From the NCBI GenBank assembly GCA_051880095.1, contig JBJENH010000106.1, positions 85,760 through 149,759 of the forward strand: a DNA stretch of 64,000 nucleotides, written 5' to 3'. The translations under genes and the position numbers were made by a program. Origin of the DNA: Bariatricus sp. (lineage in GTDB: Bacteria > Bacillota > Clostridia > Lachnospirales > Lachnospiraceae). This document shows, in pieces, positions 6,055 to 49,365 of the stretch; position 1 is the stretch's first letter, and every line of letters starts with the position of its first letter. Below the pieces are notes generated by a model. It was not told the origin of the DNA. It ran no database searches and saw only the letters and a program-made list of their open reading frames with translations.

Positions 6055-6253
6055 AAAACCCGCCAACCTTTCGGCTGACGGGTTTCGTTGTTTTTATAGT
6101 TATCTAAAGGAATGAGAGTAAAGTGCGGCAATCGGGTTTCCCCGATTGCGCTACTTTATGAGGGGGGAGATAGTTGTGTTATCAACTATCTGACACTTAG
6201 TATACCCTGAAATTATGTCCAAAATGTGATGAGACCATAAAAGAAATCGAAAA
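6055..6253 (-). ncRNA. Structured repeat copy 1, putative small RNA with terminator
   Basis: 6093-6253 is similar to 8251-8410; hairpins GATAGTTG/CAACTATC and GCAATCGGG/CCCGATTGC; terminator hairpin at 6055-6085. Confidence 0.55.
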
Positions 6254-6348
6254 AATATAAAAAACTTCTTAAGAAAGCTACAAAAAATGTCTTAATTATA
6301 CTCCGCTGTGATAAGATAAAGGCAAATAGCGATGTGGAGGTGCTGCAT

Positions 6349-8199
6349 ATGAGGATTACCAATCTTCGGATCAAAAATTTCAAATCTATCCGTAATATGT
6401 ACATCAAAGAGATTGAAAATGCATTAATTCTGGTGGGAAAGAATAATACCGGGAAGACAGCAGTGCTGGAAGCCGTCTGTGCGGTGGGCGGAACCTATCA
6501 GATCTGTACGGAAGATTTTCAGGAAGACTTCCCGAATATTGAAATTTTTATGACGCTTGAGATAACAGAGGAAGATCTGCATGTACTTCATCAGAACGGA
6601 ATTGTAAGTCAGTACAGAAGATATGATATCTGGTTTCAGGATTTCTGCAAAAAACTGCCTTCTTTTCAAAATGGTGAACTAAGCTTTGAGTTTGTAGCCA
6701 ATCGAGAGGGAAAGACACGTTATAGCGACGGTGTGAAAAAGAATAACTCTTATATTTTACAGGTGTTTCCGAGAATTTATCACGTAGACGCACAGAGAAA
6801 TCTTACGCAGCTTCAGGATGATATTCTCCTTCTTCAGGAGGATGAACTGCTTAAGAAAATGCGTGCGGATTGTTGTATGTTTGACCGTGCCAAGAAGTGT
6901 ACGCATTGCTTTTCGTGCATCGGACTGATCAATCAGAAAACGCCGGAAGAAATGAATGCGTTTGAGGCAGCCAAGCTCCTGGATTATAAGCTTTATCAAC
7001 TGAATCTGGATGCGTTTGCAAGAAAAGTGAATCGGAATTTCCGCAAAAACGGCGGGCAGGCGGAGATCATTTATTCTATGAATCGTGACGTGGAACGTAT
7101 GCTCCAGGTGACTGCCGAGATTCAGGGGAAAACAAAGAATGAAACACGTCCGGCGGAACACATGGGCAAAGGGATGAGAAGTATTTACATGCTTTCCCTT
7201 TTAGAAACAGGACTGGATGATGATAATGCGCTCCCATGCATTGTGATCGTGGAGACGCCGGAAATCTTCCTGCATCCACAGCTCCAGAAAGTAAGCGGAG
7301 ATATATTGTATCGACTGGCAAAACAAAGGCAGGTCATGTTTTCCACACATTCGCCGAATCTGCTTCCCAATTTCAACAATCGTCAGATCCGCCAGATTGT
7401 AGAGGATGCGGATGGATTTTCACAGGTAAAAGAGAAAACAGACATCAGTGCGGTGCTGAATGATCTGGGATACTCGGCAAATGATTTGATGAATGTGGAT
7501 TTTGTATTTATCGTGGAAGGGAAGCAGGACAAAAGCCGTCTGCCGCTTCTTCTCAGAAAATACTATTCTGAGATATATGATGAACAGGGCAAACTGTCCC
7601 GAGTCGCAATTATTACAACGAACAGTTGCACGAATATCAAGACGTATGCGAATTTAAAATATATGAATCAAATTTATCTAAAAGACGCATTTCTGATGAT
7701 CCGTGACGGAGACAGCAAGGACAGTGAAAAGCTGAAACGCAGTTTGTGCCGTTATTATGAAGAACGGAATCTGGAGGATGCAGACGGACTGCCGCGCGTG
7801 ACAGAGAAAAATGTACTGATTTTGAAGTATTACTCTTTTGAAAATTATTTCTTTAATCCCTGTATTATGGCGAAGATCGGGATTGTTGATTCGGAAGAAG
7901 CATTTTATGAAGCGTTCCTCGCAAAATGGAAGGAATATTTGTATCGCCTTTCCAGCGGCAAGAAGCTTCAGGAGATAATCGGGCATGATCTTACATGCGT
8001 ACAGGATGTGAAAGAGCATATGGAAGAGATACGGATCCATATGCGGGGACACAACCTCTACGATATTTTCTATGGAAGGTACAAGGATCAGGAGGAAGAA
8101 ATCCTTGGAAAATATATCGATCTGGCACCAAGAGAGGATTTTGAAGACATTCTTGACGCGATAGACCGATTTATCTATTTTGAAAATCGAAAATGTTAA
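6349..8199 (+). CDS. OLD-family ATP-dependent nuclease-like protein (AAA_15-type ATPase plus TOPRIM)
   Basis: Walker A GKNNTGKT, signature GKGMRS, ETPEIFLHP, STHSP; TOPRIM IVEGKQD and IRDGD; SD GGAGG before ATG 6349. Confidence 0.8.
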   Translation: MRITNLRIKNFKSIRNMYIKEIENALILVGKNNTGKTAVLEAVCAVGGTYQICTEDFQEDFPNIEIFMTLEITEEDLHVLHQNGIVSQYRRYDIWFQDFCKKLPSFQNGELSFEFVANREGKTRYSDGVKKNNSYILQVFPRIYHVDAQRNLTQLQDDILLLQEDELLKKMRADCCMFDRAKKCTHCFSCIGLINQKTPEEMNAFEAAKLLDYKLYQLNLDAFARKVNRNFRKNGGQAEIIYSMNRDVERMLQVTAEIQGKTKNETRPAEHMGKGMRSIYMLSLLETGLDDDNALPCIVIVETPEIFLHPQLQKVSGDILYRLAKQRQVMFSTHSPNLLPNFNNRQIRQIVEDADGFSQVKEKTDISAVLNDLGYSANDLMNVDFVFIVEGKQDKSRLPLLLRKYYSEIYDEQGKLSRVAIITTNSCTNIKTYANLKYMNQIYLKDAFLMIRDGDSKDSEKLKRSLCRYYEERNLEDADGLPRVTEKNVLILKYYSFENYFFNPCIMAKIGIVDSEEAFYEAFLAKWKEYLYRLSSGKKLQEIIGHDLTCVQDVKEHMEEIRIHMRGHNLYDIFYGRYKDQEEEILGKYIDLAPREDFEDILDAIDRFIYFENRKC

Positions 8200-8213: not shown

Positions 8214-8410
8214 AAAGAAAATCCGCCAGTCATGGGGACTGGCGGATTTCTTTATCGTTATCTAAAGGAATGAGAGTAAAGTGTGGCAACCGGTCTCCCG
8301 ATTGCACTTACTTTATGAGGGGGGAGATAGTTGTCTTATCAACTATCTGACTCTAAGTATATACTGAAAATGTGTCCAAAGTATGAGTAGATTCTAAAAG
8401 AAATCGAAAA
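8214..8410 (-). ncRNA. Structured repeat copy 2, putative small RNA with bidirectional terminator
   Basis: Second copy of the 6093-6253 element; inverted repeat AAAGAAATCCGCCAGTC/GACTGGCGGATTTCTTT at 8214-8253 can also terminate the OLD gene. Confidence 0.55.
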
Positions 8411-8414
8411 TTTC

Positions 8415-8429
8415 TTAAATGAAAATTAA
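8415..8429 (+). repeat. attL core TTAAATGAAAATTAA
   Basis: Identical to 49285-49299; marks the host/phage boundary. Confidence 0.85.
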
Positions 8430-8551
8430 TTTTTCGGGATTTTGAAGAATCCTCGGTAATACGGAAAAAATAGCTTGAAACCCAGTAAAATCAAGCATTT
8501 CAAGTATTTATATCATTTCTTATTCACTCATGATAAAACGAGAATAATCAA

Positions 8552-8578
8552 AACGGTTAGTAACACGTTAGTAACAAA
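8552..8578 (+). repeat. Integrase arm-type site (left) AACGGTTAGTAACACGTTAGTAACAAA
   Basis: 26/27 identical to 49223-49249; tandem GTTAGTAAC units with 11-bp period; both copies lie inside the cores. Confidence 0.75.
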
Positions 8579-9712
8579 TCAACTTATCTTAATCTTTTCG
8601 ATTTCCTCCCGAAGATCGTCAAGATCGCGGTGGCCATACACACTGTTTGTAATATCTCCCTTAAACGCATGTCCAAGCATTCGCTTCCGGTCGTTCTCGT
8701 TTACCTTGTACTTTTCGCAGAGACGTGAGAACGTATGTCTGCAATCGTGAGGTGTGTGCTTTTCAACGCCAGCGCGGCTGAGTGCGTCATACATGGACGA
8801 TCTGAATGCATTGGTAGAAATATTCAAAAGCGAACCAGATCGCTTCATTCGGCGTTTTACGAGGTCGTATATTCCAGAATGAATTGGAACAATGCGATCC
8901 CTGCCGGCAGCAGTTTTTACACCGCCCTGGAAATACTTCTTCTTGAGATCTACCTTGATGGATTTGTATGCCCTGATTCTGAATCCTGAATAACACATGA
9001 TCAGAATCATTTCAATAACCTCATCATCTTTGTTGTCCCAGAGAATTTTCAGTTCTTCGTCCGAGAATGGCACTCCGTGCTCATCGTCTTCTTCCTTCTT
9101 GATCTGAAGATGCGCAGAATAATCTTTATCTGCCAGCTCATAGATCTCAGCGAAAGCATACATTTGATGAAACAGTGAAAGAATCAGCTCCAGAGAAGAG
9201 TGCTTCAGATCGCAATCATCCAGGACCTTCTGAAGATCGTCATGCCGAAGTTCTGCAAAGGTGCGTTCATGGATGGAAGAGCAGTTCTTGAATGCAGCTC
9301 TGGTGGAATAGAGCGTTGCTTCAGAGTACTTCTTCCCAGAATCCACATACTTGTAATTGTAGAAACGTTCGTACACCTCTGCGAAGGTCGGGAGATTCTC
9401 GGGCTGTGTTTCTGTATCCTTGCGGAACGCCTGGTTGTAATCTGCCAGAAGAGCATCCGGATTTCCTTTCAAGTGATTCAAGGTCCGCTCGAATCCCGGA
9501 TAGTATGTTCCAGCATGGTATGCAGTCAGCACGGAGAATCCTTTCATGTAATCGTCTACATAACAGATTGCTTTTACTGGTGCATACTGGCCAGGCGCGA
9601 TCAGCTCTGTGGCGGGCGGATACACTGCGAAGGGGTTCCGCCGGTTCCCGGAAAGTTTCTTGATACTGCCATAGCCGTTTGGGAGTTTGGGGTATTTCTT
9701 TGGTCTTGCCAT
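8579..9712 (-). CDS. int: Tyrosine integrase
   Basis: N-terminal KLPNGYGSI; catalytic GFRI, HDCRHTF, MLGH, SVYGH; start set at MARPKK after SD AAAGGAG. Confidence 0.95.
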   Translation of the reverse strand: MARPKKYPKLPNGYGSIKKLSGNRRNPFAVYPPATELIAPGQYAPVKAICYVDDYMKGFSVLTAYHAGTYYPGFERTLNHLKGNPDALLADYNQAFRKDTETQPENLPTFAEVYERFYNYKYVDSGKKYSEATLYSTRAAFKNCSSIHERTFAELRHDDLQKVLDDCDLKHSSLELILSLFHQMYAFAEIYELADKDYSAHLQIKKEEDDEHGVPFSDEELKILWDNKDDEVIEMILIMCYSGFRIRAYKSIKVDLKKKYFQGGVKTAAGRDRIVPIHSGIYDLVKRRMKRSGSLLNISTNAFRSSMYDALSRAGVEKHTPHDCRHTFSRLCEKYKVNENDRKRMLGHAFKGDITNSVYGHRDLDDLREEIEKIKIS

Positions 9713-9730
9713 GTTCATCATCTCCTTTTT

Positions 9731-9746
9731 TGTGCGACGTCGCACA
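9731..9746. promoter_or_regulatory. Perfect 16-bp palindrome TGTGCGACGTCGCACA just upstream of the int RBS
   Basis: Seen directly; identical copy at 46430-46445. Confidence 0.7.
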
Positions 9747-9790
9747 TTTTTGGTATAAAAATAACAGCCCGCGAAGAACATGAGTTCCGC

Positions 9791-9963: not shown

Positions 9964-11310
9964 TCAATTTTCATTTTCTGACTGAATAATATTAAGTGTT
10001 TGGCGATATTCTTCGGCAATCGGAATCTTTGTAAATACAACAGTATTATTAAAATTCTCTATAACGACCTTTTCGATTTCATCAAGGCTTACATGGAAAA
10101 ATTCTTTCTTTAAATTAACACGGTTTACACTATTTTTTTCGAAATGCTTATGCAAGGTGTTTTCGAGCTCTGGAGCATTATCAGAAAAGATCATTGCATG
10201 TACATCAAATTCAAATGGGACAGATGCGCTGCTTAGTTCCTTAATCCTATCCATTGGTTCCAAACGTCGTGTCATACCGATTTTATATATATCTTCGCCG
10301 AATGATCCAATGTTCGAAATAACATAAACATATCCTGCGCGCGCATTTGCTTCTCGTTCCAAAACAGAATTCTTTTCCTCTTCGAGCTGTTTTAATTTAT
10401 CTTCCAACTCTTTGATTTTATCGACATATAATTGCTTCTCCACATCACTGGAAGTTTTTTGCATATATGAAAGAAGTTTTTTTACTTCGTTATTGCATTG
10501 AGCCTGATCCTTTTCGATTTTTGCTTTCTGACGTTCAATTTCACGACGAACCTTTTCTTCTTCTAACATCTGCTCTTTAATCGCCTTTTGCTGCTCACGC
10601 TCTTGCTCCTTTTTGAGCTCATAGGTATAAACCAGATTTAGTTCTTCGAGCTTCATTTCCAACATTTTGCTATTAAACGCAACGCCATCAATGGAGAAGA
10701 TTTTATTTAATGATTCGAAGGATTTAGATACTTTATTTCGAACAGCATCTATGTTTTTGTGTGTTAACCCAAGAAGCAAATTATCGCATTCAGCATTGAA
10801 GCAACGTAAAATTTGTTTCTTGTTATCAGAAATCTCTTTCTTAGAACCAGCGGAAGTAACGATAAATGCAGCATCGGATTTAACAAAATCTTGTTCTTTG
10901 TTTTTTAGTAACGACAATTTGTTTTTGCATTCCTCGGAAGATAAACCATCATAATCTGAAAAGTTGAAATGATCTACTAGGATATTTGATTCCAAGGTTT
11001 TTAATTCGGATTTCAATGAATTTACTTCAGATTTTAAGGATTTAAGTTTGCGGTTGTATTCAGTTTCTAATGAAGATTTTTTGTTTTGATATTCGGTATC
11101 AAGGTTTTGTAGCATAGAAGAAGCCTGATCTTCCTCTCCATACAAATCAAGCAACTTTTTGTTCTCTTTGTTTTGCAAAACTATACAAACTATCCCGAAA
11201 ATCGGAAAGACAAAAAGAAATGGAAGTGCAAATGCTATAATCGTTGGAGTAAAGAGAATAGCAATAACCCAGGTTTTTAAATACCATTTTGAGTGTTCTT
11301 TTGAAATCAT
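9964..11310 (-). CDS. DUF4041 / T5orf172 (GIY-YIG-like) domain protein with N-terminal TM segment
   Basis: GYVYVISNIGSFGEDIYKIGMTRR, ASVPFEFDVHA, KEFF motifs; coiled coil; hydrophobic N-terminus. Confidence 0.8.
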   Translation of the reverse strand: MISKEHSKWYLKTWVIAILFTPTIIAFALPFLFVFPIFGIVCIVLQNKENKKLLDLYGEEDQASSMLQNLDTEYQNKKSSLETEYNRKLKSLKSEVNSLKSELKTLESNILVDHFNFSDYDGLSSEECKNKLSLLKNKEQDFVKSDAAFIVTSAGSKKEISDNKKQILRCFNAECDNLLLGLTHKNIDAVRNKVSKSFESLNKIFSIDGVAFNSKMLEMKLEELNLVYTYELKKEQEREQQKAIKEQMLEEEKVRREIERQKAKIEKDQAQCNNEVKKLLSYMQKTSSDVEKQLYVDKIKELEDKLKQLEEEKNSVLEREANARAGYVYVISNIGSFGEDIYKIGMTRRLEPMDRIKELSSASVPFEFDVHAMIFSDNAPELENTLHKHFEKNSVNRVNLKKEFFHVSLDEIEKVVIENFNNTVVFTKIPIAEEYRQTLNIIQSENEN

Positions 11311-11470: not shown

Positions 11471-11938
11471 TTATACCATTTTGAAAATTGCTAGATTTGG
11501 AATAAATATGATGCAGTAATCTCCGACATTAACACTTACTCCATACTTGTCTCGGTAACAGTCTATGCATTCCTGTAGATATTCTTCCGTGACATCGAGA
11601 TATTCTGCGATTTCATATCGGCTCTGGCATCCGTATTCGTATGCTTCAATAAGTTTCATAAGACCAACGAGACGTTTGTACCCGTGGAGCCTTGCCTGTC
11701 GTTCTTGTTTACGATTCTGGATGTCCGACATATCTATTATATTTCCAACAGAAGTATAATGGTGCCCCAGTTCTTCGGCGAGTACACAGACCTTTTCCGA
11801 TGATGTATCGACAGAAGTATTAATAGCAATATTCCCGTCAATATAAAAACCTTTCAGATTTTCTTCGCCAAGATAGTACTTGTAAATTTTTACATTATTG
11901 TCATAAGCTTCTTGTTCTAAAATTTCTAGATTATTCAT
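11471..11938 (-). CDS. ImmA/IrrE-family metallopeptidase (anti-repressor)
   Basis: LAEELGHHYT motif, KQERQA; adjacent to the repressor. Confidence 0.85.
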   Translation of the reverse strand: MNNLEILEQEAYDNNVKIYKYYLGEENLKGFYIDGNIAINTSVDTSSEKVCVLAEELGHHYTSVGNIIDMSDIQNRKQERQARLHGYKRLVGLMKLIEAYEYGCQSRYEIAEYLDVTEEYLQECIDCYRDKYGVSVNVGDYCIIFIPNLAIFKMV

Positions 11939-11989
11939 AATAGTCCCTCCCAGTATTACTATAATGGAATAGATGTCCGATATGTGAGA

Positions 11990-12316
11990 CTACTTGCTAT
12001 CCTCCTGTTTTACAAATTTTGCAAATGATTCTATGCGACTCCATTGCTCTTCAGTAAAGTCTTTTCCATCAAGGTGCGCTGCCATTGTGATGGGAACATC
12101 ATTAATATGAACGATTTCTCCGTCTACAAGCTTCTCTGTGTCCAGTTTTAATTCGCGCGTGATTTTTAACACATTTAAAATATTAGAGTTGGCAATCCCT
12201 CTTTTTAGGATACTGTCCAATGTAGTCCACGGCATATTTATTGTTTCACAAAACTTTTTCATACTTCCGTATTCATTTATAATAAGAGCTTTTAAGTTGG
12301 ACTCCAGTTCATTCAT
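11990..12316 (-). CDS. XRE-family phage repressor (CI/ImmR-like)
   Basis: HTH SMKKFCETINMPWTTLDSILKRG; divergent from cro; SD GGAGA before ATG 12316. Confidence 0.8.
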   Translation of the reverse strand: MNELESNLKALIINEYGSMKKFCETINMPWTTLDSILKRGIANSNILNVLKITRELKLDTEKLVDGEIVHINDVPITMAAHLDGKDFTEEQWSRIESFAKFVKQEDSK

Positions 12317-12428
12317 ACTGCAAGTTCTCCTTTCATTACTATGATTAGATAATACCACCGAAATCTCGAAAAATCAATATAAATGTTAATTGAATACGAT
12401 AAAAATATCTAAAATTCGAGAATATGTA

Positions 12429-12496: not shown

Positions 12497-12697
12497 GTGT
12501 TCCCGAATTTAGAAGCAGAGATGGCGAGAAACAAAATAACGCAGGCAAAGTTAGCTGGTATCCTCGGAATTACTCCAACTACATTATCATTCAAATTGAA
12601 CGGGAAGAGTAATTTGTCATTAAAGGAATGTGTTGAAATTAAGCGAAACGCATTTCCAGATAAAACATTGGATTATTTGTTTGCAACAGATGAATAA
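12497..12697 (+). CDS. Cro-like HTH protein
   Basis: MFPNLEAEMAR..ITQAKLAGILGITPTTLSFKLNG; GTG start after GAAAGGAAG. Confidence 0.85.
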   Translation: MFPNLEAEMARNKITQAKLAGILGITPTTLSFKLNGKSNLSLKECVEIKRNAFPDKTLDYLFATDE

Positions 12698-12719
12698 AGA
12701 AAGCGAGGTGACATGGATC

Positions 12720-12953
12720 ATGAACATTCAAGAAGCGGTACGACTGGCTATCGAAAGCGATGGATACATAGCCAGACAAGAATACGAAGATGGAAAAGCA
12801 TTCCACAGAACGAGAATTAAGCCTACAAACAGCTATGCGACATGTATTATTTTCACGTTCGATCAGGAAGGAAAAAGGATCACCCACTGTAAGAACTGGA
12901 ATCCTACAGCAGATGATCTGATGGCGGAAGACTGGGAAGTGTTTAAGGAATAA
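12720..12953 (+). CDS. Tad2-like (DUF2829 superfamily) putative anti-defence protein
   Basis: MNIQEA..A....I.R N-terminus and C-terminal WNPTADDLMAEDW motif; SD GAGGTG. Confidence 0.6.
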   Translation: MNIQEAVRLAIESDGYIARQEYEDGKAFHRTRIKPTNSYATCIIFTFDQEGKRITHCKNWNPTADDLMAEDWEVFKE

Positions 12954-33864: not shown

Positions 33865-36573
33865 ATGGCGAATGGACGTATCAAGGGAATTACGATTGAA
33901 ATTGATGGAAGCACTACAGGTCTTGACAAGGCACTGAAATCTACGGAATCGAATATTTCAAGCGTTCAGCGTTCTCTGAAAGATGTGAATCGTCTTCTGA
34001 AAATAGATCCTTCTAACACAGAACTGTTATCTCAGAAGCAGAAGCTCTTATCGCATGCCGTTGAGGAAACGAAGCAGAAGCTTGAAATGGAAAAAGAAGC
34101 GCTCAGACAGGCCGCAGAGCAGAACGTTCCCTCCGACAAAATGGATGCTTTGAAGAGGGAAGTCATCGCAACTACTCAGGAGTTGAAGGAACTAGAAAAA
34201 CAAGCAAAAAATGCAAGTTCCGTTCTTGGTACACAACTGCAAGAGGCTGGTAAAAAAATATCAAAAGTAGGCGAAGAGGTTACGAGTGCGGGAAAAAAAC
34301 TACTACCTGTTACGGCGGCAGTTACTGGCATCGGAACGGCAGCAGTAAAAACGGCAGCAGATTTCGAGAGTTCAATGTCGCAAGTGCAAGCTACGATGGG
34401 AATTACGAAGGACTCTATGTCTAGTGTTGATGGCCAGACTGTAAACACAATGGATACATTGTCGGCACTTGCAAAAAAGATGGGAGAAGAAACTGCATTT
34501 TCTGCAAGCGAGTGCGCGGAGGCTTTAAATTATCTTGCCCTTGCCGGATATGATACACAGCAAATGTGCGATACCCTTCCAACAGTACTTAACTTGGCGG
34601 CAGCTGGAGGAATAGATCTCGCATCGGCATCGGATATGGTAACAGACGCAATGTCTGCATTAGGAATGGGGGTCAATGAATCTGAGAAGATGGTAGATCA
34701 GATGTCTAAAACCGCATCTACTACCAATACATCTGTGGCTCAGCTTGGAGAAGGAATTCTAACGATTGGAGCAACGGCAAAATCCATTAAAGGAGGAACG
34801 GCTGAATTAAATACAGCGCTTGGAATTCTGGCAAACAATGGAATCAAAGGCGCAGAGGGTGGAACGCACCTTCGAAATGTAATATTGTCACTGCAAAATC
34901 CGACTGACACCGCGGCTGGGTGCTTAGAAAAATTAGGTGTATCCGTATATGATTCCGAAGGAAACATGAGATCTCTCAACGACATACTCGGAGATCTTAA
35001 TGCAAGCATGGATGGCATGACATCGGAAGAAAAGTCAAACATCATAGGAAAAATATTCAACAAAACAGATTTATCTTCTGTGAATGCTTTGCTCGCAAAC
35101 ACAGGAGAAACGTGGGACAACCTGCAAGGATCTATTGAAAACAGTGCTGGTGCTGCACAACAGATGGCGGATACGCAGCTTGATAATTTGAATGGTCAAA
35201 TTACAATTCTTAAGTCTGCCGTAGAAGGTGCTGCTATTTCTATTGGAGAGGTATTAGTGCCAATTATAAAAGAAATCGTTCAGAAAGTTCAAGAATGGAC
35301 GGATAAATTCAATGGATTAAGTGATGAGCAGAAAAGAATTATAGTTATCATTGGAGCTGTTGCGGCTGCGATCGGCCCAATTCTTATAGTGATAGGAACA
35401 TTGATATCGGCTATTGGAACTATAACAAGCGCAACCGGATTACTTATGTCATCGGGACTATTGCCAATTATTGGAGTGGTGGCCGGAGTGGTGGCCGCAG
35501 GCGTTCTTCTGTATAAGAACTGGGATACCATCAAAGAAAAGGCTGGTCAGTTGAAGGAAAACGTTATCAATAAATTCAGTGAACTGAAACAAGGTGCGTC
35601 AGAAAAATTAGAGTCTATGAAAGCAGACGCGAACGAAAAATGGGACAGCATGACAAATACTGTGACAGAAAAGCTTTCCAGCATGAAACAGAGCGCGGCT
35701 TCGAAATATTCTGAAATAAAGCAGAAAGCAAAAGATTCATGGAGCGGAATGAAACAGGATATGTCGGCTAAACTTTCAGAGATGAAGGCAAGCTACGATA
35801 CGCATGGTGGAGGACTTAAAGGTGCTGTATCAGCGACACTCACCGGAATCCACGGTCTGTATTCCGCGAAATATAATGCAATTGACACATTGACTGGTGG
35901 AAAGCTATCTGCAATTTCATCCAAATTTTCAACTAATATGCAAAACGCAAAGGCTTCTGTATCGAGTATGTTAGCCAATATTAGTAGCTCGTTTAATAGC
36001 GGATTATCCGGTGCGCTTTCAACGGCGTCCAGCAAACTTGGAAGTATCGGAAATAAATTTACTTCCACAATGTCAAATGCAAGAAAAGCGGTTTCCGATG
36101 CGATCAGCAATATCCGGAGTAAATTTAATTTCTCATGGAGCCTTCCGAAGCTGAAACTCCCGCATATTTCAATTAGTGGAAAATTCAGCATAAACCCTCC
36201 GTCGGTTCCAAAATTCGGAATCAGCTGGTACAAAAAAGCAATGGAATCTGCAATGATCATGACAGGTCCGACAGCGTTTGGATATGACGCAAAGACAAAC
36301 AGTTTATTAGCTGGAGGAGAAGCGGGAAATGAAGTACTGACAGGAGAGGGGCATCTTGTAGATTTGATTGATAACGCTGTTGGAAACTGGTATTCAAGAA
36401 TCGGATATCAGCTCGACATCCTCAGCTCGATTGTGCAGCAATATTTTCCGCGTGTACTCGAAAACATGGATCGGGATATCGTGCTTGATGACGGAACGTT
36501 AGTGGGAAAGATGGCACATAGAATGGATACAGAACTGGGGATCATTGCCAGTCACAAAGGAAGGGGGAATTGA
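33865..36573 (+). CDS. Tape measure protein (TP901 family)
   Basis: IKGITIEIDG N-terminus, ADFESSMSQV, T.FSA.E.AEA..YLALAG, GI.G.E.GT.LRN. Confidence 0.92.
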   Translation: MANGRIKGITIEIDGSTTGLDKALKSTESNISSVQRSLKDVNRLLKIDPSNTELLSQKQKLLSHAVEETKQKLEMEKEALRQAAEQNVPSDKMDALKREVIATTQELKELEKQAKNASSVLGTQLQEAGKKISKVGEEVTSAGKKLLPVTAAVTGIGTAAVKTAADFESSMSQVQATMGITKDSMSSVDGQTVNTMDTLSALAKKMGEETAFSASECAEALNYLALAGYDTQQMCDTLPTVLNLAAAGGIDLASASDMVTDAMSALGMGVNESEKMVDQMSKTASTTNTSVAQLGEGILTIGATAKSIKGGTAELNTALGILANNGIKGAEGGTHLRNVILSLQNPTDTAAGCLEKLGVSVYDSEGNMRSLNDILGDLNASMDGMTSEEKSNIIGKIFNKTDLSSVNALLANTGETWDNLQGSIENSAGAAQQMADTQLDNLNGQITILKSAVEGAAISIGEVLVPIIKEIVQKVQEWTDKFNGLSDEQKRIIVIIGAVAAAIGPILIVIGTLISAIGTITSATGLLMSSGLLPIIGVVAGVVAAGVLLYKNWDTIKEKAGQLKENVINKFSELKQGASEKLESMKADANEKWDSMTNTVTEKLSSMKQSAASKYSEIKQKAKDSWSGMKQDMSAKLSEMKASYDTHGGGLKGAVSATLTGIHGLYSAKYNAIDTLTGGKLSAISSKFSTNMQNAKASVSSMLANISSSFNSGLSGALSTASSKLGSIGNKFTSTMSNARKAVSDAISNIRSKFNFSWSLPKLKLPHISISGKFSINPPSVPKFGISWYKKAMESAMIMTGPTAFGYDAKTNSLLAGGEAGNEVLTGEGHLVDLIDNAVGNWYSRIGYQLDILSSIVQQYFPRVLENMDRDIVLDDGTLVGKMAHRMDTELGIIASHKGRGN

Positions 36574-43345: not shown

Positions 43346-44362
43346 TTATTTTTTAAAATTGCCCAATAATATTACAACATTGCTTCTGATATAATCTATA
43401 GCCAAACCAAATATAAAAATCGCAAGTATTGATATGGCAAAACGAATGGTAAACATAAGCGGATCATGGGAGACACTATCTAAACAAATAATGTTATCCC
43501 ATAAAATACTGCGTAATGCTCCATGCTCATGAAATAAATAAACTGCAAAGGTAAGAGATGATATCTTACTTATCACTGTATTTGTATTACTATGATTACT
43601 AAAAAAAATAAATAACATAACTGATGAAATCGTTACTGCGACTGAATTATATATAAAAAGTAGATTGGAAAATACAGCCAACAACGGAATGAAGTCAGAC
43701 AATATTTTTGCTAATAATAAAATAATGGAGCAAGCAATATATATAAGTCCGGGGTGCGCCAAATTAATAGGATAGTTTCTGATATATGCTGATATAAGAT
43801 AAAGCACAATAAACCACGAAAAACTAAATCCGTTGTTCACCCCAAAAGTATTTCCGAATATGCTAATTGTCGGAACGACGGAAAATAGCAGAAGCAAAAT
43901 CATTAATACTTTTTTGTACTGTTCTTGGGTAAGTGAATTTATAAAATGATTTATTATTGGAGAGAGTATAATGAGTATTATGTACTGGGTGAAAAACCAG
44001 TACTGATTTGTAAGCAATGGTAATGCATACTTAACTAAATCTTTTACGTTGAAAGTAATATTCGTAGATGGAATTATACAGAGCACTAGATAAATTCCAA
44101 CGGAATATAGTTCGACTTGAAGCCACAATTTGAATATTTTTTTAAATGTAACAGTTTGTCTGCATAGGAAATAACCACTAATCAATATAAAAACATTTAC
44201 CGCTACAATAGAAAATGAGCGGGATATATTGGTAATAAAATATGGTACACTAAGTGGGATTATGTTAGCATTAGCAATTCCATAATGTGTAGCATGAAGA
44301 ATGACAACCATAAACATAGATATGGTTTTTAATAAGTCAATAGATGCATTTCTTTCTTTCAC
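43346..44362 (-). CDS. Acyltransferase-3 family membrane O-acyltransferase (moron)
   Basis: RN.SIDLLK.ISMF.VV.LH, VN.F.LISGYF, WF...Y, FAVYLFH; promoter TTCCAA-17-TGaTACAAT; GTG start after GGAGGGAGG. Confidence 0.88.
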   Translation of the reverse strand: MKERNASIDLLKTISMFMVVILHATHYGIANANIIPLSVPYFITNISRSFSIVAVNVFILISGYFLCRQTVTFKKIFKLWLQVELYSVGIYLVLCIIPSTNITFNVKDLVKYALPLLTNQYWFFTQYIILIILSPIINHFINSLTQEQYKKVLMILLLLFSVVPTISIFGNTFGVNNGFSFSWFIVLYLISAYIRNYPINLAHPGLIYIACSIILLLAKILSDFIPLLAVFSNLLFIYNSVAVTISSVMLFIFFSNHSNTNTVISKISSLTFAVYLFHEHGALRSILWDNIICLDSVSHDPLMFTIRFAISILAIFIFGLAIDYIRSNVVILLGNFKK

Positions 44363-44593
44363 AGTAATTCCTCCCTCCATTTAGAGGAATTGTATCATAA
44401 AATGAAAGATTTTGGAAGAAGATGTTATTTAATGCATAAACTAAAGCAGACTTTAATTCAGTAGCTAAGAGCCGTAAATCCGAAAGGAACGGCTCTTTTT
44501 ATCTGAATAATGTAAACTAGCGATCTCGGAGATTGAATGTTGGTGGACAGAGTAGTATAATTTATTGCATAAACAAAAGATGGAGGGGATAAT

Positions 44594-45088
44594 ATGTGGT
44601 GGATTATATTATCTTGCTTTATAATAATTTTTATAATTATTATAATAATAAAAGCATTTTGGTATTTTTACAAAAGGAGAAATATAGGAAAAGACTTTTT
44701 TGCAGAGAGCGAAAAACCGTTTGGGAAGAAAGCTCCTGAAATGTATTATGATAAGCAAATGATGTTTAGAAAATGCTATGGTTTTTTTATTGGCGTTCAT
44801 TATCTGCTAGTTATAATGTCAATTTCGTTAACCACGATAACTATTTATATGGTTATAGATACGGAACTTAATAATATAGCAAGGCTTACAGTCAGTGTGT
44901 TGGCGGCTATATCGACAAATTTACAAATTGTATTGCGATTTGATAAAGTTGCAGAGGGATATATAAGTGCAATGAGAGTATTAGAGCAGGCCATTTTAGA
45001 ATACGAGGAGAGACAGAACGAGAGCTTGGAAATTTTATTGCAAGCAAATATGCGAGCGGAAGAAATAATACATAATATGCATCATTAA
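44594..45088 (+). CDS. SLATT/DUF4231-like membrane protein (moron)
   Basis: N-terminal TM, then paired TM helices followed by F.K.A.GY..A.R.LE helix; promoter TTGAAT-17-TATAAT and terminator at 45095-45125. Confidence 0.55.
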   Translation: MWWIILSCFIIIFIIIIIIKAFWYFYKRRNIGKDFFAESEKPFGKKAPEMYYDKQMMFRKCYGFFIGVHYLLVIMSISLTTITIYMVIDTELNNIARLTVSVLAAISTNLQIVLRFDKVAEGYISAMRVLEQAILEYEERQNESLEILLQANMRAEEIIHNMHH

Positions 45089-45197
45089 AATTCTACCAAC
45101 CATCAACTCGGTGGTTGGTATTTTTATGCAATCACGGACAGTACTTGGAAAAATTCTCCTTTTGTCGTATAATGACGGTGGAAGGGAGAGTTGTTAT

Positions 45198-45806
45198 ATG
45201 GGTGGTATGAATGTATATGACTGGAAAGAAATTACGGAAGCCAGAAATGTTGGATCCACGTATTTAACGCATTTAATTCGCGGATGCGATCGAGAAGCAT
45301 ATGAAACTCTTGTAAAAATATTACAGAGCGGCATTCTTGAATCATGTAAGTCAAAACGGAATAATTATGATACCGTCGAAGGAAACAAGAAAGTCGTTTG
45401 TTTTCAGGACGCATCTTTTGATTCGATGAATGAAATAATGACCGGAGAAGAATGGTGCGATATGAATACGAGATACTCAAAATTTGGTATTCAATTGGAT
45501 AAAATAGCATTGTTTGAATCTGGAGCAAGGCCTGTCATATATGATAAAAAGAGCGAAATTTTAAATGTCATTGATGAAGATATGAAATGGAGAGTCGTGA
45601 ATTTAGATTTGGGATATATATCGTGTATTGATTGGACTCATGAGCGCGAATGGAGAATACCAAAAGATGTGAAAATATATCAATTTCCCATGAAAATTAT
45701 TGTGAAATCAGAGTGGTATAAGAAGAAACTTCTTAGTGATAAACGGCTATCAGAAAGAGTGGAAAACGAACAATTTGATGAAAAAGATATTATAGTTTTT
45801 GAATAG
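45198..45806 (+). CDS. AbiGi-like / ADP-ribosyltransferase-fold protein (moron)
   Basis: YLTHL, VCFQD, YSKFGI, GARPVIY, DWTHEREWR; promoter TTGGAA-17-TATAAT and terminator at 45802-45834. Confidence 0.65.
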   Translation: MGGMNVYDWKEITEARNVGSTYLTHLIRGCDREAYETLVKILQSGILESCKSKRNNYDTVEGNKKVVCFQDASFDSMNEIMTGEEWCDMNTRYSKFGIQLDKIALFESGARPVIYDKKSEILNVIDEDMKWRVVNLDLGYISCIDWTHEREWRIPKDVKIYQFPMKIIVKSEWYKKKLLSDKRLSERVENEQFDEKDIIVFE

Positions 45807-45906: not shown

Positions 45907-45988
45907 GGAGAGCGATATGAGAGAGACCAGAGCGAGACCGTAGAGGTCTTATTTTTATGCGAAAAATTACAGAAAGAGAGTGAGGTAT

Positions 45989-46408
45989 ATGAAGAAAATG
46001 GAAAAGTTATTTAACTGGATCAGCATTGTATTTGGATTTGTTGGAGGGTTATTTTCATACTGGCTTGGAGGATGGGACATTCTGCTTAAAACGATTGTTT
46101 TTCTTGCAGTGGTGGACTATATAACGGGACTCATCAAAGCAGTATATCTGAAACAGTTATCTTCCGAGATCGGGTTCAAAGGCCTGCTGAAAAAGATTGT
46201 GATGTTTATCGTGATTGCAGTTGCTTTCGTGATTCAGCAGCTGATCGGCGGCACGGTACCGCTCCGGGAAGTGGTCATTATGTTTTATATTGCGAATGAA
46301 GCATTGAGCTTACTGGAAAATGCAGCAATCTTTATTCCGATTCCAGACAAGCTCAGAGACGTATTGCTACAGTTGAGAGATAAAGATACGGATTCAGAGG
46401 GCGAGTAA
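45989..46408 (+). CDS. Phage holin (holin_4-like)
   Basis: LGGWD.LL...DYITG, LSS.IG.KGL.KK, FYIANE.LS.LEN, IP..L...L.QL. Confidence 0.9.
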   Translation: MKKMEKLFNWISIVFGFVGGLFSYWLGGWDILLKTIVFLAVVDYITGLIKAVYLKQLSSEIGFKGLLKKIVMFIVIAVAFVIQQLIGGTVPLREVVIMFYIANEALSLLENAAIFIPIPDKLRDVLLQLRDKDTDSEGE

Positions 46409-46460: not shown

Positions 46461-47426
46461 ATGGCACATGTATTTTTAATTTGCGGACACGGAGCAGGAG
46501 ATTCGGGAGCAGTAGGAAACGGATATCAGGAGCAGGAACGTGTAAGGGCTCTGGGGGCCAGAATCAAGGCTCTCGGCGGTGATTACGTTACACTGGCAGA
46601 TACCTCGCAGAACTGGTACAAGACTGCAGGAATCAACACACTGACGATCCCGAAGGATTGGCAGATCTTGGAGCTTCACATGGATTCCGGAGCAGCATCA
46701 GCACATGGCGGGCATGTGATTATCAAGCAGGGTTACACTGCTGACAAGTATGACAATGCACTTGCTGCCATGTTAAAAGAGATCCTTCCTGGTCGGTCTA
46801 GTATGATTGTCGGCCGGAGCAATCTGGCCAACGTCAACAGAGCAGCGGCGAAAGGATACGGATACCGGCTTGTTGAATTCGGATTTATTTCCAATGCAAA
46901 TGATGTTAAGATTTTCAACTCACGCATGGATGAGATCGCCGAGGGAGTTCTTCAGGCGTTTGATATTCCGACAAATAAGGTCAAACAGATTCCGGGCACA
47001 GCGAAGAATGACAATCAGCTCTGGTACCGCGCACACTGTCAGAATCTTGGTTGGCTTGATCCGGTTCATGATGGCCAGACTTCCGGAACGACCGGATTTT
47101 CAAAGAGACTGGAAGCGCTGCTGATCGATCTCAGAACAATTCGTAAGAAATATCCGGATGCGAAGCTTGCAGGTGATTTTCATATCCAGGACATTGGATG
47201 GATTCATATTGATGATATTGAGCATGATACCATTCTTGGAACGATCGGAAAGGCCCTGAGACTGGAAGCCTTCCGGCTGTATTTAACCGGTGTGCCTGAC
47301 AAGACGCTCTACTACGAAGCTCATGTTCAGGGCATCGGCTGGCAGGGCGTCAGAAAAGACGGTGAGATGGCCGGAACGACCGGACAGTCAAAGAGGGTTG
47401 AAGCGGTAAGGATCTGGATCGAATAA
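46461..47426 (+). CDS. Endolysin: Amidase_3 plus ChW repeats
   Basis: ICGHGAGDSGA, ELHMDS, LVEFGFI; three Y..H.Q..GW...DG..AGTTG..R.EA repeats. Confidence 0.9.
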   Translation: MAHVFLICGHGAGDSGAVGNGYQEQERVRALGARIKALGGDYVTLADTSQNWYKTAGINTLTIPKDWQILELHMDSGAASAHGGHVIIKQGYTADKYDNALAAMLKEILPGRSSMIVGRSNLANVNRAAAKGYGYRLVEFGFISNANDVKIFNSRMDEIAEGVLQAFDIPTNKVKQIPGTAKNDNQLWYRAHCQNLGWLDPVHDGQTSGTTGFSKRLEALLIDLRTIRKKYPDAKLAGDFHIQDIGWIHIDDIEHDTILGTIGKALRLEAFRLYLTGVPDKTLYYEAHVQGIGWQGVRKDGEMAGTTGQSKRVEAVRIWIE

Positions 47427-47508
47427 AAAATGCCCGGAAATGTACATTGACATTTCCGGGCATTGCAATGTATTAACGAATTGAATGAAACAAATTTATA
47501 AAAACTGG

Positions 47509-47569
47509 TTGACAAATTAACCAAAATAAGTTAAATTTATTATGTAAAGAGTGAAAACTTATTTGTCAA
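47509..47569 (+). promoter_or_regulatory. Promoter/operator of the XRE-IrrE cassette
   Basis: TTGACA-17-TAAATT; inverted pairs TTGACAAAT/ATTTGTCAA and AAATAAGTT/AACTTATTT. Confidence 0.55.
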
Positions 47570-47585
47570 TGAAAGGGAGAGGAAC

Positions 47586-47945
47586 ATGAACAGGAGCAAA
47601 TTAAGCAGGTTTGGCATATTTTGCAGAAAGCTAAGATTGGATAATGGAGAATTATTATATGATATGGCTAAAAAATTGGGTGTCTCTTCCGCGTTTTTGT
47701 CCAAAGTAGAAAACGGAAACGGAAAGCCGCCAGCTGAATGGAGAGATATGATAATATCTATGTATCGTTTAGATGACGAAAGTATTGCGGAGTTAGATGA
47801 CGCTTTATTTGAGGCAAATAATATGAAGAGCATTGATATAAGACATTTCTCAAATGAAGATAAAGAACTGATGTGGTCTTTCGCTCGAAAACTGGATTCT
47901 GTTGATAAAGAAAAAATAAGAAAACTTTTAAACAATAAGGAGTGA
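47586..47945 (+). CDS. XRE-family HTH regulator
   Basis: FG.F.RKLR.D.GE.L.DMA.KLGVSSAFLS.VENG. Confidence 0.88.
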   Translation: MNRSKLSRFGIFCRKLRLDNGELLYDMAKKLGVSSAFLSKVENGNGKPPAEWRDMIISMYRLDDESIAELDDALFEANNMKSIDIRHFSNEDKELMWSFARKLDSVDKEKIRKLLNNKE

Positions 47946-47952
47946 TGATATT

Positions 47953-48462
47953 TTGAATATTGCTGCAACAGGTATGTCAAGAAAAACAATAAGAGAAATT
48001 GCTGGTATTGTTAGAAAATCGTGTGGATGTGATGATAAACCATATTTCCCGATTGCACAGTTTATCGAATTTGTTTTGGGAAATCCTGACAATCCGGAAT
48101 TCAATTATGAAATAGTTGATCCGAACGAGATGGAAGATATGTATGGGAATACAAATACCGGAACAAATACCATGAGGATTCGAAGTGATGTATATGAGAG
48201 AGCGGTAAAGGGCGTTCCACGGGATAGATTTACGCTATGTCATGAGTTGGGTCATTATCTATTACATCGACCGGAAATGATGTCATATGCAAGGGGAGAA
48301 GTTCCGAGATACTGTAATCCAGAATGGCAGGCGAACACTTTTGCGGGAGAACTAATGGCGCCATACAATTTAACCAAAAATATGAGCGTCGATGAAATAA
48401 TGAAAAGATGTGGTATGTCCAGACAAGCAGCAACAATTCAATATGGTGAATATCATAAGTGA
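47953..48462 (+). CDS. ImmA/IrrE-family metallopeptidase
   Basis: RDRFTLCHELGHYLLH (HEXXH), EWQANTFAGELMAP. Confidence 0.88.
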   Translation: MNIAATGMSRKTIREIAGIVRKSCGCDDKPYFPIAQFIEFVLGNPDNPEFNYEIVDPNEMEDMYGNTNTGTNTMRIRSDVYERAVKGVPRDRFTLCHELGHYLLHRPEMMSYARGEVPRYCNPEWQANTFAGELMAPYNLTKNMSVDEIMKRCGMSRQAATIQYGEYHK

Positions 48463-48489
48463 TGTAATCGGCAGAAATGTCTTACATAG

Positions 48490-48602
48490 AAAAAACCAAG
48501 CGCACGAGACGCTTGGCGCTTACCGATTGGAACTAGTCCGTACGGTCAGTTTTACTTTTTCCTAGACAGTTAAAGTATAGCACGGATAATTCCTTTTGGC
48601 AA
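48490..48602 (-). ncRNA. Promoter plus ~80-nt antisense RNA between irrE and the micropeptides
   Basis: TTGCCA(48602-48597)-17-TGcTATACT(48579-48574); terminator CCAAGCG/CGCTTGG followed by T6. Confidence 0.6.
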
Positions 48603-48630
48603 GTGAAAAACCGAAAGGAGGAGTAGGTGC

Positions 48631-48765
48631 ATGTATATCATAAGAGCTTCTATAACATTGAAAGATGGAACGAAAATTTATGCGCGTGATTACGGCAAAA
48701 GAGGATTCCCTATCTGGATTGGTCCAGGGCCGGAACCGATTAAAGTAAAACATGTGCATTGTTAA
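48631..48765 (+). CDS. 44-aa micropeptide MYIIRASITLKDGTKIYARDYGKRGFPIWIGPGPEPIKVKHVHC
   Basis: SD GAAAGGAGG; not in track. Confidence 0.65.
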   Translation: MYIIRASITLKDGTKIYARDYGKRGFPIWIGPGPEPIKVKHVHC

Positions 48766-48830
48766 TTTTAAGAGTATATGTAACTGACCCATATACTTTC
48801 CAGACGAAAAAAGGAAGGAGAGTATTGGAT

Positions 48831-48950
48831 ATGGCAAAAACAAAGTCAAGCACACGCGGTGTACAGAATAAAAAAATTGTTGTAGTCAAAGGGTATACCA
48901 GAAGCGATGGAACACATGTGAAAAACCATAGAAGATCAACACCAAATTAA
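48831..48950 (+). CDS. 39-aa basic micropeptide MAKTKSSTRGVQNKKIVVVKGYTRSDGTHVKNHRRSTPN
   Basis: SD AAGGAG; V.GYTR.DGT.V..H.RS.PN motif; followed by terminator at 48959-48998. Confidence 0.7.
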   Translation: MAKTKSSTRGVQNKKIVVVKGYTRSDGTHVKNHRRSTPN

Positions 48951-48954
48951 TTAA

Positions 48955-49116
48955 AACCAAAACGGTCTCTAATCTATACGAGGATGAGACCGTTTTTTGT
49001 TTTAAAATATGTGAATAAACGGAGGAAGGGGAGCATGTGTGAATGCTCCCCTAACTCCAATCATCATCTCTTAAGTTTAGCATGCAACAAATTTATGTTG
49101 CAAATGTAGTGTAGCA
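48955..49116 (-). ncRNA. Putative small RNA near attR
   Basis: Extended -10 TGcTACACT (49116-49108); hairpins at 49083-49102 and 49028-49051; TTCCTCC segment; shares the bidirectional terminator. Confidence 0.4.
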
Positions 49117-49222
49117 CAAATGTTGCGGTGTGTGACATTTTCGATAAAAATAGATGTTTTTCGATAAATTTCGATGTTTCATATTGCATCATCTTTGGTT
49201 GAATTGCTTCTTATTTAATTGT

Positions 49223-49249
49223 AACGGTTAGTAACACGTTAGTGACAAA
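49223..49249 (+). repeat. Integrase arm-type site (right)
   Basis: AACGGTTAGTAACACGTTAGTGACAAA, one mismatch to 8552-8578. Confidence 0.75.
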
Positions 49250-49284
49250 AATGCCGAAAAACCGCGAAAAATCAGCAAAAAAAT

Positions 49285-49299
49285 TTAAATGAAAATTAA
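49285..49299 (+). repeat. attR core TTAAATGAAAATTAA
   Basis: Identical to 8415-8429. Confidence 0.85.
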
Positions 49300-49365
49300 G
49301 AAAACTCCCCGCATGCTCTTAAAAAATCTCTGGTAATCTTGTATACTGTAGAGGAGGTGATGAAG

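Follow-up and report, generated by a model that had tools for sequence, protein, structure and literature searches.

An XRE/M78 repressor–peptidase pair followed by an antisense RNA gene and two micro-protein genes in a Bariatricus sp. prophage

What does a repressor/peptidase pair control when the only genes behind it encode micro-proteins? This question is raised by a 64,000-nucleotide (nt) stretch of Bariatricus sp. DNA (contig JBJENH010000106.1, positions 85,760 to 149,759; hereafter the window), in which an XRE-family helix-turn-helix (HTH) gene and an ImmA/IrrE-family (M78) metallopeptidase gene near the right end of a prophage are followed by two very short open reading frames (ORFs), sORF1 and sORF2. 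Comparison with related loci supports an autoregulatory operator, a small RNA (sRNA) gene, sequestration of the sORF1 Shine-Dalgarno (SD) sequence with long-range pairing in the mRNA, coding selection on both sORFs, and portability of the cassette. Whether the whole is a repressor/peptidase-gated, type I toxin-antitoxin-like locus with the micro-proteins as its output is, in our judgement, about evenly balanced. The micro-proteins would most likely be growth-arresting or host-takeover effectors.

Micro-protein genes and their regulatory pair

The initial annotation had pointed to two tiny ORFs of 44 and 39 amino acids (aa) with strong SD sequences, and both were borne out: good SD sequences precede them, and each belongs to a conserved family (Table 1). 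For sORF1, 41 clusters were found at 90% identity; a full profile search, clustered at 50% identity, collected 556, nearly all of 35-60 aa, with a core of ~30 aa (YIFRASITxKDGxxIYAKDYGKKAFxIWV). The sORF2 family comprised at least 102 clusters, nearly all of exactly 39 aa. Nucleotide diversity at codon positions 1/2/3 was 0.20/0.19/0.51 for sORF1 and 0.18/0.15/0.50 for sORF2, and synonymous single-base codon changes exceeded non-synonymous ones 4.7-fold and 6.0-fold, respectively. The excess of third-position diversity, together with the conservation of the families, indicates that sORF1 and sORF2 are genuine protein genes under coding-type selection.

AlphaFold2 models of both proteins were beta-rich, with a predicted local distance difference test score of 85 for sORF1 and 72 for sORF2. 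Pfam, NCBIfam and PADLOC gave nothing meaningful for either protein, the match of sORF2 to ZorB (E = 0.014) being negligible. sORF1 matched no PHROGs family, and sORF2 matched phrog_21154 (E = 2.7e-5), a family of unknown function. A sequence-profile search of the PDB with sORF1 returned chance matches only (E of at least 0.15), Foldseek returned nothing under E = 2 from the PDB and only uncharacterised family members from BFVD, and literature searches with the peptide motifs returned no relevant paper. The two families have neither a name nor a Pfam family and are often missed in gene calling. A 728-aa "repeat protein" (P0269) that appeared in the sORF1 search was rejected as a low-complexity translation artefact. 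The turn that the initial annotation saw in both peptides, x-DGT-x-[IV], is present as letters in each; common descent could not be demonstrated, and homology of sORF1 and sORF2 was rejected on a profile-profile comparison (hhalign) that gave 5% probability over 12 columns.

The peptidase match to PF06114 was above the Pfam cut-off. Its HELGH motif occupies residues 97-101 (48241-48255), and H97, E98 and H101 were invariant among 27 homologues. We detected 449 peptidase homologues, chiefly in gut metagenomes and Lachnospiraceae. An XRE homologue stood directly upstream in nearly all of 90 peptidase-fetched loci (6 from genome contigs and 84 from IMG/VR viral contigs, the IMG/VR scans being far richer), the exceptions being two distant loci from metagenome-assembled genomes (MAGs) and one truncated contig.

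As proposed in the initial annotation, this pair (47586-47945 and 47953-48462) is separate from the immunity pair of the prophage (11471-12358) and has its own palindromic operator; the palindrome overlaps the -10 element. In relatives with an XRE protein ~50-73% identical, the promoter TTGACA-AA-TTAACC-N6-GGTTAAtAT keeps the 18-bp palindrome over the -10, and several of these loci carry a second copy farther upstream. XRE clades that are ~45% identical have another palindrome instead, ATCAACA-N5-TGTTGAT. Because the putative operator switches along with the XRE clade, this argues for autoregulation of the XRE gene from its own promoter; the position of the palindrome, together with this co-variation, suggests that XRE binds it.

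The M78 HExxH site, the adjacent XRE gene in the operon and the palindromic operator at the promoter are shared with ImmR/ImmA (ICEBs1, phage phi105), DdrO/IrrE (Deinococcus) and CapH/CapP (CBASS), the type to which the pair had been assigned. Mechanisms described for CapH/CapP and ImmR/ImmA (bioRxiv 10.1101/2022.04.27.489752) provide the repressor/protease precedents. In IrrE and CapP, regulation probably acts through a GAF domain. IrrE-like switching, also suggested in the initial annotation, finds no support in the present peptidase: with 169 aa it has the size of ImmA and matched the capP profile only at positions 35-154 of 242, so it lacks a C-terminal GAF domain. Neither an immune operon of the CapP kind nor any PADLOC effector beyond the ZorB match was found. 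The sensor thus resembles an ImmR/ImmA-type pair in every comparable feature and lies outside the GAF-bearing IrrE/CapP subgroup, and by analogy the expected logic would be repressor cleavage and derepression after stress. Unlike in those systems, whose cargo consists of excision, repair or CBASS genes, the cargo here is two micro-proteins, and an RNA layer is placed between regulator and cargo.

Table 1. Features of the module and of the surrounding prophage (window coordinates)
Feature	Position	Strand	Remarks
Promoter and putative operator of the sensor operon	47509-47569	+	-35 TTGACA 47509-47514; -10 TAAATT 47532-47537; spacing 17
Operator palindrome, 18 bp	47517-47534		TTAACC-N6-AGTTAA; overlaps -10
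Outer inverted repeat	47509-47517 / 47561-47569		TTGACAAAT / ATTTGTCAA
XRE-family HTH repressor, 119 aa	47586-47945	+	HTH_31 E = 4.9e-5; HTH_3 E = 1e-3; PADLOC capH E = 1e-3
ImmA/IrrE-family (M78) Zn-metallopeptidase, 169 aa	47953-48462	+	TTG start; PF06114 E = 3.9e-10; PADLOC capP E = 7.8e-16
Hairpin hp1 (ATGTAA...TTACAT)	48462-48487	+	Begins within the stop codon of the preceding gene; delimits the portable cassette on the left
sRNA gene, RNA of ~80 nt	48487-48602	-	-35 TTGCCA 48602-48597; extended -10 TGcTATACT 48582-48574; 17-nt spacing
Predicted sRNA start and hairpin A	~48567; ~48549-48522	-	~20-nt single-stranded 5' end
sRNA terminator	48517-48495	-	GC-rich stem; U-run 48494-48489
Long imperfect leader hairpin, ~70 nt	48526-48594	+	Upper stem includes the sRNA -10 box
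SD-sequestering hairpin of sORF1	48592-48624	+	CCTTTTGG 48592-48599 pairs with CCGAAAGG 48611-48618; SD AAAGGAGGAG 48615-48624
sORF1, 44 aa	48631-48765	+	Basic, isoelectric point (pI) 9.8; conserved ~30-aa core YIxRASITxKDGTKIYARDYGKRGFPIWIG
Hairpin 3' of sORF1	48773-48797	+	Loop ACTGACC 48783-48789, complementary to leader GGTCAGT 48544-48550
sORF2, 39 aa	48831-48950	+	Very basic, pI 11.6; consensus MAKTKSSVRGxQxKKIVVVKxYxRxDGTxVxxHRRSTPN
Module terminator	48959-49000	+	AAAACGGTCTC...GAGACCGTTTT and T-run; inverted repeat 11/11; first plus-strand terminator after the XRE promoter
Integrase	8579-9781		
Primary immunity pair	11471-11938; 11990-12358		M78 peptidase; HTH protein; left end of prophage
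Holin	45980-46408		Right end of prophage
Amidase_3/ChW lysin	46461-47426		
attR	49216-49249		3' of the module terminator; host two-component system follows

Linkage and portability of the cassette

Searches were anchored on the peptidase and, in the reverse direction, on sORF1 and on sORF2. Among 66 distinct peptidase-anchored loci with enough downstream sequence, an sORF1-family ORF lay 125-220 nt 3' of the peptidase gene in 58. Where the peptidase was at least 55% identical, sORF1 was present in every locus (29/29) and sORF2 as well in 19, which upholds the linkage that the initial annotation had put forward for a neighbourhood check. In a Lachnospiraceae MAG (L001) the peptidase was 43% identical and sORF1 82%, and sORF1 was 70-90% identical among phages that differ in regulators, lysins and integrases. 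By these comparisons, conservation of sORF1 far exceeds that of every neighbouring phage protein.

The cassette also occurred behind other genes. sORF1, with or without sORF2, was found 3' of a different XRE gene and a 182-188-aa M78 peptidase (~30% identical; for example in L095, L101, L119 and L125-L131), and 3' of an unrelated 153-aa protein with no peptidase nearby (L097, L117, L164 and L193). The 153-aa protein had no Pfam match; its N-terminus looks ribbon-helix-helix-like by eye. In the five of these loci whose flanks were inspected (L095, L097, L101, L117 and L119), the cassette lay directly 3' of the lysin gene. In roughly one third of the 75 sORF2 loci, no sORF1 was detected. Since the cassette follows a second XRE/M78 type and the 153-aa protein, and sORF2 occurs alone elsewhere, the micro-proteins are not bound to one peptidase.

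Homologues of sORF2 with 69-74% identity lie unannotated in four deposited Lacticaseibacillus phage genomes. OP807345.1, which was checked in detail, carries a stand-alone homologue (34167-34283; L200 2501-2617) with its own TG-extended promoter and terminator, and in OP807345.1 and OP869850.1 the homologue runs against the direction of the early operon around it. In three Desulfuromonadales/Geobacteraceae MAGs (L004-L006), M78 peptidases of 30-38% identity are followed at a similar distance by sORF1-like frames such as LIYVAYITIKGVRRYASQYGKKAFPIWVDA, and the association between peptidase and sORF1 may extend beyond Firmicutes. Neither blastn with the module DNA against 50,697 phage records nor tblastn with sORF1 against the phage records gave a match.

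RNA elements around sORF1

Between peptidase and peptides, the initial annotation had placed an antisense RNA of ~80 nt with a promoter and a terminator. Promoter-like sites in the window numbered 10 against 7.4 ± 3.2 in shuffles, a raw motif count not above chance, and support for the sRNA is therefore drawn from conservation and covariation over 32 loci. RNAalifold on plain MAFFT alignments recovered the most conserved stems only; hence we folded each sequence singly, computed duplex energies with controls between loci, and counted structure pairs. The strand-resolved stability tests covered 27-31 distinct sequences.

The predicted build of the sRNA (free 5' end of ~20 nt, hairpin A, terminator and U-run) was the same in 32/32 loci, and in all 32 the minus-strand fold was more stable than its complement. 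In relatives, the invariant columns of the box TATAxCAC are exactly T1, A2, A4 and T6 of a minus-strand -10 element, with TG before it and a TTGCAA -35 element at 17 nt. The minus strand was more stable for the GC hairpin (48495-48517) in 25 of 27 sequences (G·U pairs 45 versus 1) and for hairpin A in 24 of 31; in the terminator on the minus strand, G·U was counted 19 times and U·G 20 times. On the minus-strand alignment, 84.9% of cells were paired in the sRNA structure, compared with 78.3 ± 0.7% after shuffling (reached by none of 500 shuffles) and with 32-49% for sliding partners, and 12 of the 19 pairs showed compensatory changes. The single-stranded 5' end was conserved as well, with an almost invariant box. 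Over the whole window no Rfam family reached the gathering threshold, and within 47400-49350 there were chance-level matches only (E of at least 0.68). By comparative criteria, the predicted sRNA gene is real. Its RNA runs antisense to untranslated sequence, the leader that separates the peptidase gene from sORF1, and not to coding sequence or to the SD sequence.

The plus strand of this leader carries structure that was absent from the initial annotation and that gives the locus its likeness to type I toxin-antitoxin systems. Whichever of the three kinds of gene comes before it, a stretch of about 170 nt upstream of sORF1 is conserved from the stop codon of that gene onwards (TGATGTAA). Hairpin hp1 is likewise present behind all three; its outer stem is conserved, its inner stem covaries, and the plus strand was more stable in 26/31 sequences (G·U pairs 19 versus 4). 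The long leader hairpin folded in 31/31 distinct sequences. Its apical loop holds a conserved box, UAGACAG (48563-48569; YUAGACAAU in relatives), and its lower stem covaries, with a duplex energy of -10.0 kcal/mol within loci against -5.2 ± 2.5 kcal/mol between loci. Since this hairpin spans the sRNA promoter, only plus-strand RNA could form it, or else a minus-strand RNA of greater length, for which no promoter is visible.

For the hairpin predicted to sequester the SD sequence of sORF1, 30 of 31 sequences gave the more stable fold on the plus strand (G·U pairs 50 versus 7), and its pairs 170-176 with 192-197 covary, many as U·G. Complementarity between the leader and the loop 3' of sORF1 was kept in at least 10 sequence variants, for example CGGCCAG/CTGGCCG, CCAACTAG/CTAGTTGG and TCAACAGGT/ACCTGTTGG, and also in loci without sORF2. 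A 5'-3' lock of this kind is known from the hok and aapA1 mRNAs, and SD sequestration combined with long-distance pairing would give the translation-inert mRNA fold of type I systems. Together, the leader, the sRNA gene, sORF1 and the 3' hairpin appear as one portable unit.

Two other candidates for the leader were rejected: an XRE operator, as the TxGACAAT box is conserved whichever of the three regulator types is present and so is not regulator-specific, and a plus-strand promoter for sORF1, as its -10 element is not conserved in relatives. In the spacer before sORF2 (48797-48830) there is a second, overlapping hairpin pair, and in relatives pairs such as CTCTGG...CCAGAG flank the SD sequence; sORF2 may have a translational lock of its own.

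No plus-strand terminator was predicted between 47537 and 48959, and no conserved plus-strand promoter was found in the peptidase-sORF1 gap among relatives, so the simplest reading is a read-through mRNA, which would probably span xre, the peptidase gene, the leader, sORF1 and sORF2 and end at 48996. Metatranscriptome contigs from cattle and pig gut cover xre, the peptidase gene, the leader with sORF1, and sORF2 of a relative (L015); being unstranded, they lend weak support to read-through. The window sequence itself was represented by a single pig-gut DNA run. Overlap of sRNA and mRNA requires a plus-strand transcript that starts upstream of 48487, for which the evidence is the constraint on plus-strand structure and these contigs.

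Models of the locus and its prophage setting

In the model that we prefer, XRE would bind the palindrome over its own promoter and keep the xre-peptidase operon low, and the ImmA-size peptidase, by analogy with ImmR/ImmA, DdrO/IrrE and CapH/CapP, would cleave XRE upon a stress signal, for instance DNA damage. From the XRE promoter, transcription would probably continue along the structured leader of ~170 nt and reach sORF1 and sORF2. A strong and apparently constitutive minus-strand promoter inside the leader would yield an RNA of ~80 nt perfectly complementary to the leader, which itself would pair the ribosome-binding site of sORF1 with an upstream anti-SD sequence and also pair with the loop of the hairpin 3' of sORF1. 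Leaky transcripts would thus be silenced by excess antisense RNA and SD sequestration. After repressor cleavage, a burst of transcription would outnumber the sRNA and, being convergent, interfere with its promoter; sORF1 would be made only beyond this threshold. The products would be soluble, basic beta-hairpin effectors, growth-arresting or active in host takeover, that are off in the lysogen. This anatomy of several locks fits the suggestion in the initial annotation that the peptides are the regulated output. Within this model a growth-arresting effector is favoured over an antirepressor, because sORF1 is far more conserved than its neighbours and triple locking is typical of toxic products.

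Several observations weigh against this model. The predicted sRNA (48567-48487) ends ~48 nt short of the SD sequence (48615-48624) and so could not block the ribosome directly. Neither micro-protein has a membrane segment (highest 15-aa mean Kyte-Doolittle hydropathy 0.31 for sORF1 and 0.13 for sORF2), whereas nearly all known type I toxins have a hydrophobic one. For the long leader hairpin no strand bias was seen, and because it overlaps the sRNA promoter, part of the conservation credited to the promoter might instead come from the RNA stem, or vice versa. In the window there is also a weak proximal plus-strand promoter (TAGACA-16-GATAAT), although not conserved, and the HTH_31 and HTH_3 matches of XRE fall under the Pfam gathering score.

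Known type I loci share parts of this organization. In the damage-inducible loci tisB/istR-1 and symE/symR, as predicted here, a small ORF lies behind a repressor-controlled promoter, with a cis-encoded antisense RNA of ~80 nt against the 5' leader that has its own strong promoter and terminator; the repressor here is a private XRE/peptidase pair and not LexA. With hok/sok and aapA1/IsoA1 the locus shares a sequestered ribosome-binding site and covarying 5'-3' long-distance pairing. It differs from type I loci in its soluble, basic and putatively toxic products, in an mRNA that is an apparent read-through of the regulator operon and in the distance of the sRNA from the SD sequence. Prophage SPbeta of Bacillus subtilis carries a two-toxin type I locus, yonT/yoyJ/SR6, with a polycistronic prophage mRNA, two tandem small ORFs and one antisense RNA (PMC5848175), as predicted here. 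[quoted passage not shown] Literature searches on COG2856/Xre, CapH/CapP and type I toxin-antitoxin systems returned known systems only, none of them named with this layout, in agreement with the initial annotation. The ImmR/ImmA-type sensor and the type I-like RNA control are known; their proposed combination on two unnamed, widespread phage micro-proteins is new.

The same regulatory anatomy would suit any product kept off in the lysogen, and the upstream gene, although of three different kinds, is always a likely autorepressor. Both points also fit a second immunity region of the kind that phage P22 has in immI, in which sORF1 and/or sORF2 would inactivate the main prophage repressor or activate its ImmA-like peptidase, the gating serving to protect lysogeny. 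P22 immI (arc-sar-ant) likewise lies at the late end of the prophage, and the present module is at the late end, apart from the primary immunity pair. The two share the character of a second regulatory region, with upstream repressor gene(s) (mnt and arc in P22), an antisense RNA from the gap (sar) and a product (Ant) that is off in the lysogen; in some relatives of the present module the upstream gene encodes the 153-aa protein in place of XRE/M78. Ant, however, is a protein of ~300 aa from a known family, whereas neither an Ant, Bro or KilAC domain nor any family match was found for sORF1. The sar RNA covers the ant ribosome-binding site, whereas the present sRNA leaves that of sORF1 free. 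sORF2 is also found in phages without the module, and the identity of sORF1 over differing regulators argues for a conserved, probably host, target and not for a fast-evolving phage repressor. We consider an immI-type function unlikely, if not negligibly so. It is distinctly improbable, in our view, that the sRNA is the main product, as a trans-acting regulator or transcriptional insulator, with sORF1 transcribed from its own promoter independently of XRE and the peptidase. The almost invariant box in the single-stranded 5' end, the proximal promoter-like site and the movement of the cassette among different upstream genes would agree with such a role; yet the -10 element of that site is not conserved, hp1, the long hairpin and the anti-SD pairing show constraints on plus-strand RNA upstream of it, and the cassette is always co-directional with, and directly 3' of, the regulator gene, from its stop codon onwards.

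As another role for the peptides, the initial annotation had offered activation or inhibition of the neighbouring M78 peptidase in a three-protein switch; this proposal has lost most of its ground. The close and frequent linkage with this peptidase clade speaks for it, and small beta-rich proteins, as modelled, could dock by strand addition. Against this stand the cassettes behind the ~30%-identical peptidase of another clade and behind the 153-aa protein, the stand-alone sORF2 of the Lacticaseibacillus phages, and the L001 locus, where a strongly conserved sORF1 beside a diverged peptidase is the opposite of what co-evolving partners would show; a cofactor would also not need antisense and SD-sequestration locks. 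We hold this role to be very improbable. Hardly any credence is left for a plain type II pair, with the peptidase as toxin, XRE as antitoxin and the small ORFs as passengers. Such a system was predicted for Xre-COG2856 by comparative genomics (PMC2701414), but COG2856 proteins were non-toxic when tested in Streptococcus pneumoniae and E. coli (PMC4257102); characterised members are repressor/protease switches, and the conserved cassette would be left unexplained.

A broader reading would make the cassette an undescribed portable output unit of gut-Firmicute phages that can stand behind any autorepressor operon, whether of the two XRE/M78 clades or of the 153-aa protein. In that case sORF1 would be the first member of a new class of micro-effectors, soluble, basic and beta-rich and acting as toxin or antirepressor, under hok-like mRNA folding and antisense RNA, and sORF2 would be a second, independently mobile 39-aa effector; we advance this generalization tentatively, as a possibility somewhat short of even. 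Known repressor/peptidase pairs control excision, DNA repair or CBASS immunity, and a pair gating only two micro-proteins, with a protease-gated repressor joined to a type I-like RNA lock, would combine two regulatory principles previously studied apart. Phages carry both families, which are common in gut metagenomes and lack any annotation; assigning them a function would inform the annotation of hundreds of prophages. If the micro-proteins are toxic, type I toxins would extend beyond membrane peptides. The cassette is ~500 nt long and covariation names the exact base pairs, which makes the model directly testable by mutation.

The prophage occupies ~40.7 kb of the window, and the direct repeat AACGGTTAGTAACACGTTAGT at 8545-8578 and 49216-49249 marks both of its ends as the attachment (att) repeat. 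As the order is holin, lysin, module, attR and host two-component system, the module is in an accessory ("moron") slot, with the lysis genes on one side and the attachment site on the other. A perfect 15-bp hairpin lies 3' of the lysin (47429-47464), with a T-run on the minus strand only; it may stop antisense transcription better than late transcription, and late transcripts could enter the XRE module. Between the tail genes and the holin are an Acyl_transf_3 O-acetyltransferase gene on the minus strand (43346-44380) and two ORFs without assignment, 44594-45088 (weak SLATT/DUF4231-like matches) and 45111-45806, all of which may be further accessory cargo. At the left end, a Tad2-like gene (Thoeris anti-defence 2, PF11195, E = 7e-11) is located just right of the primary immunity pair (12630-12953, plus strand), and a 448-aa protein with T5orf172/MUG113 and DUF4041 domains is encoded between the integrase and that pair (9964-11310, minus strand).

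A stretch of ~170 nt occurs in two copies with 84-93% identity, at 6093-6262 and 8251-8419, for which the whole-window Rfam scan gave no match. The copy at 6093-6262 lies upstream of a 621-aa gene (6334-8199). The other is just left of attL, a position that before integration was upstream of the response-regulator/kinase operon.

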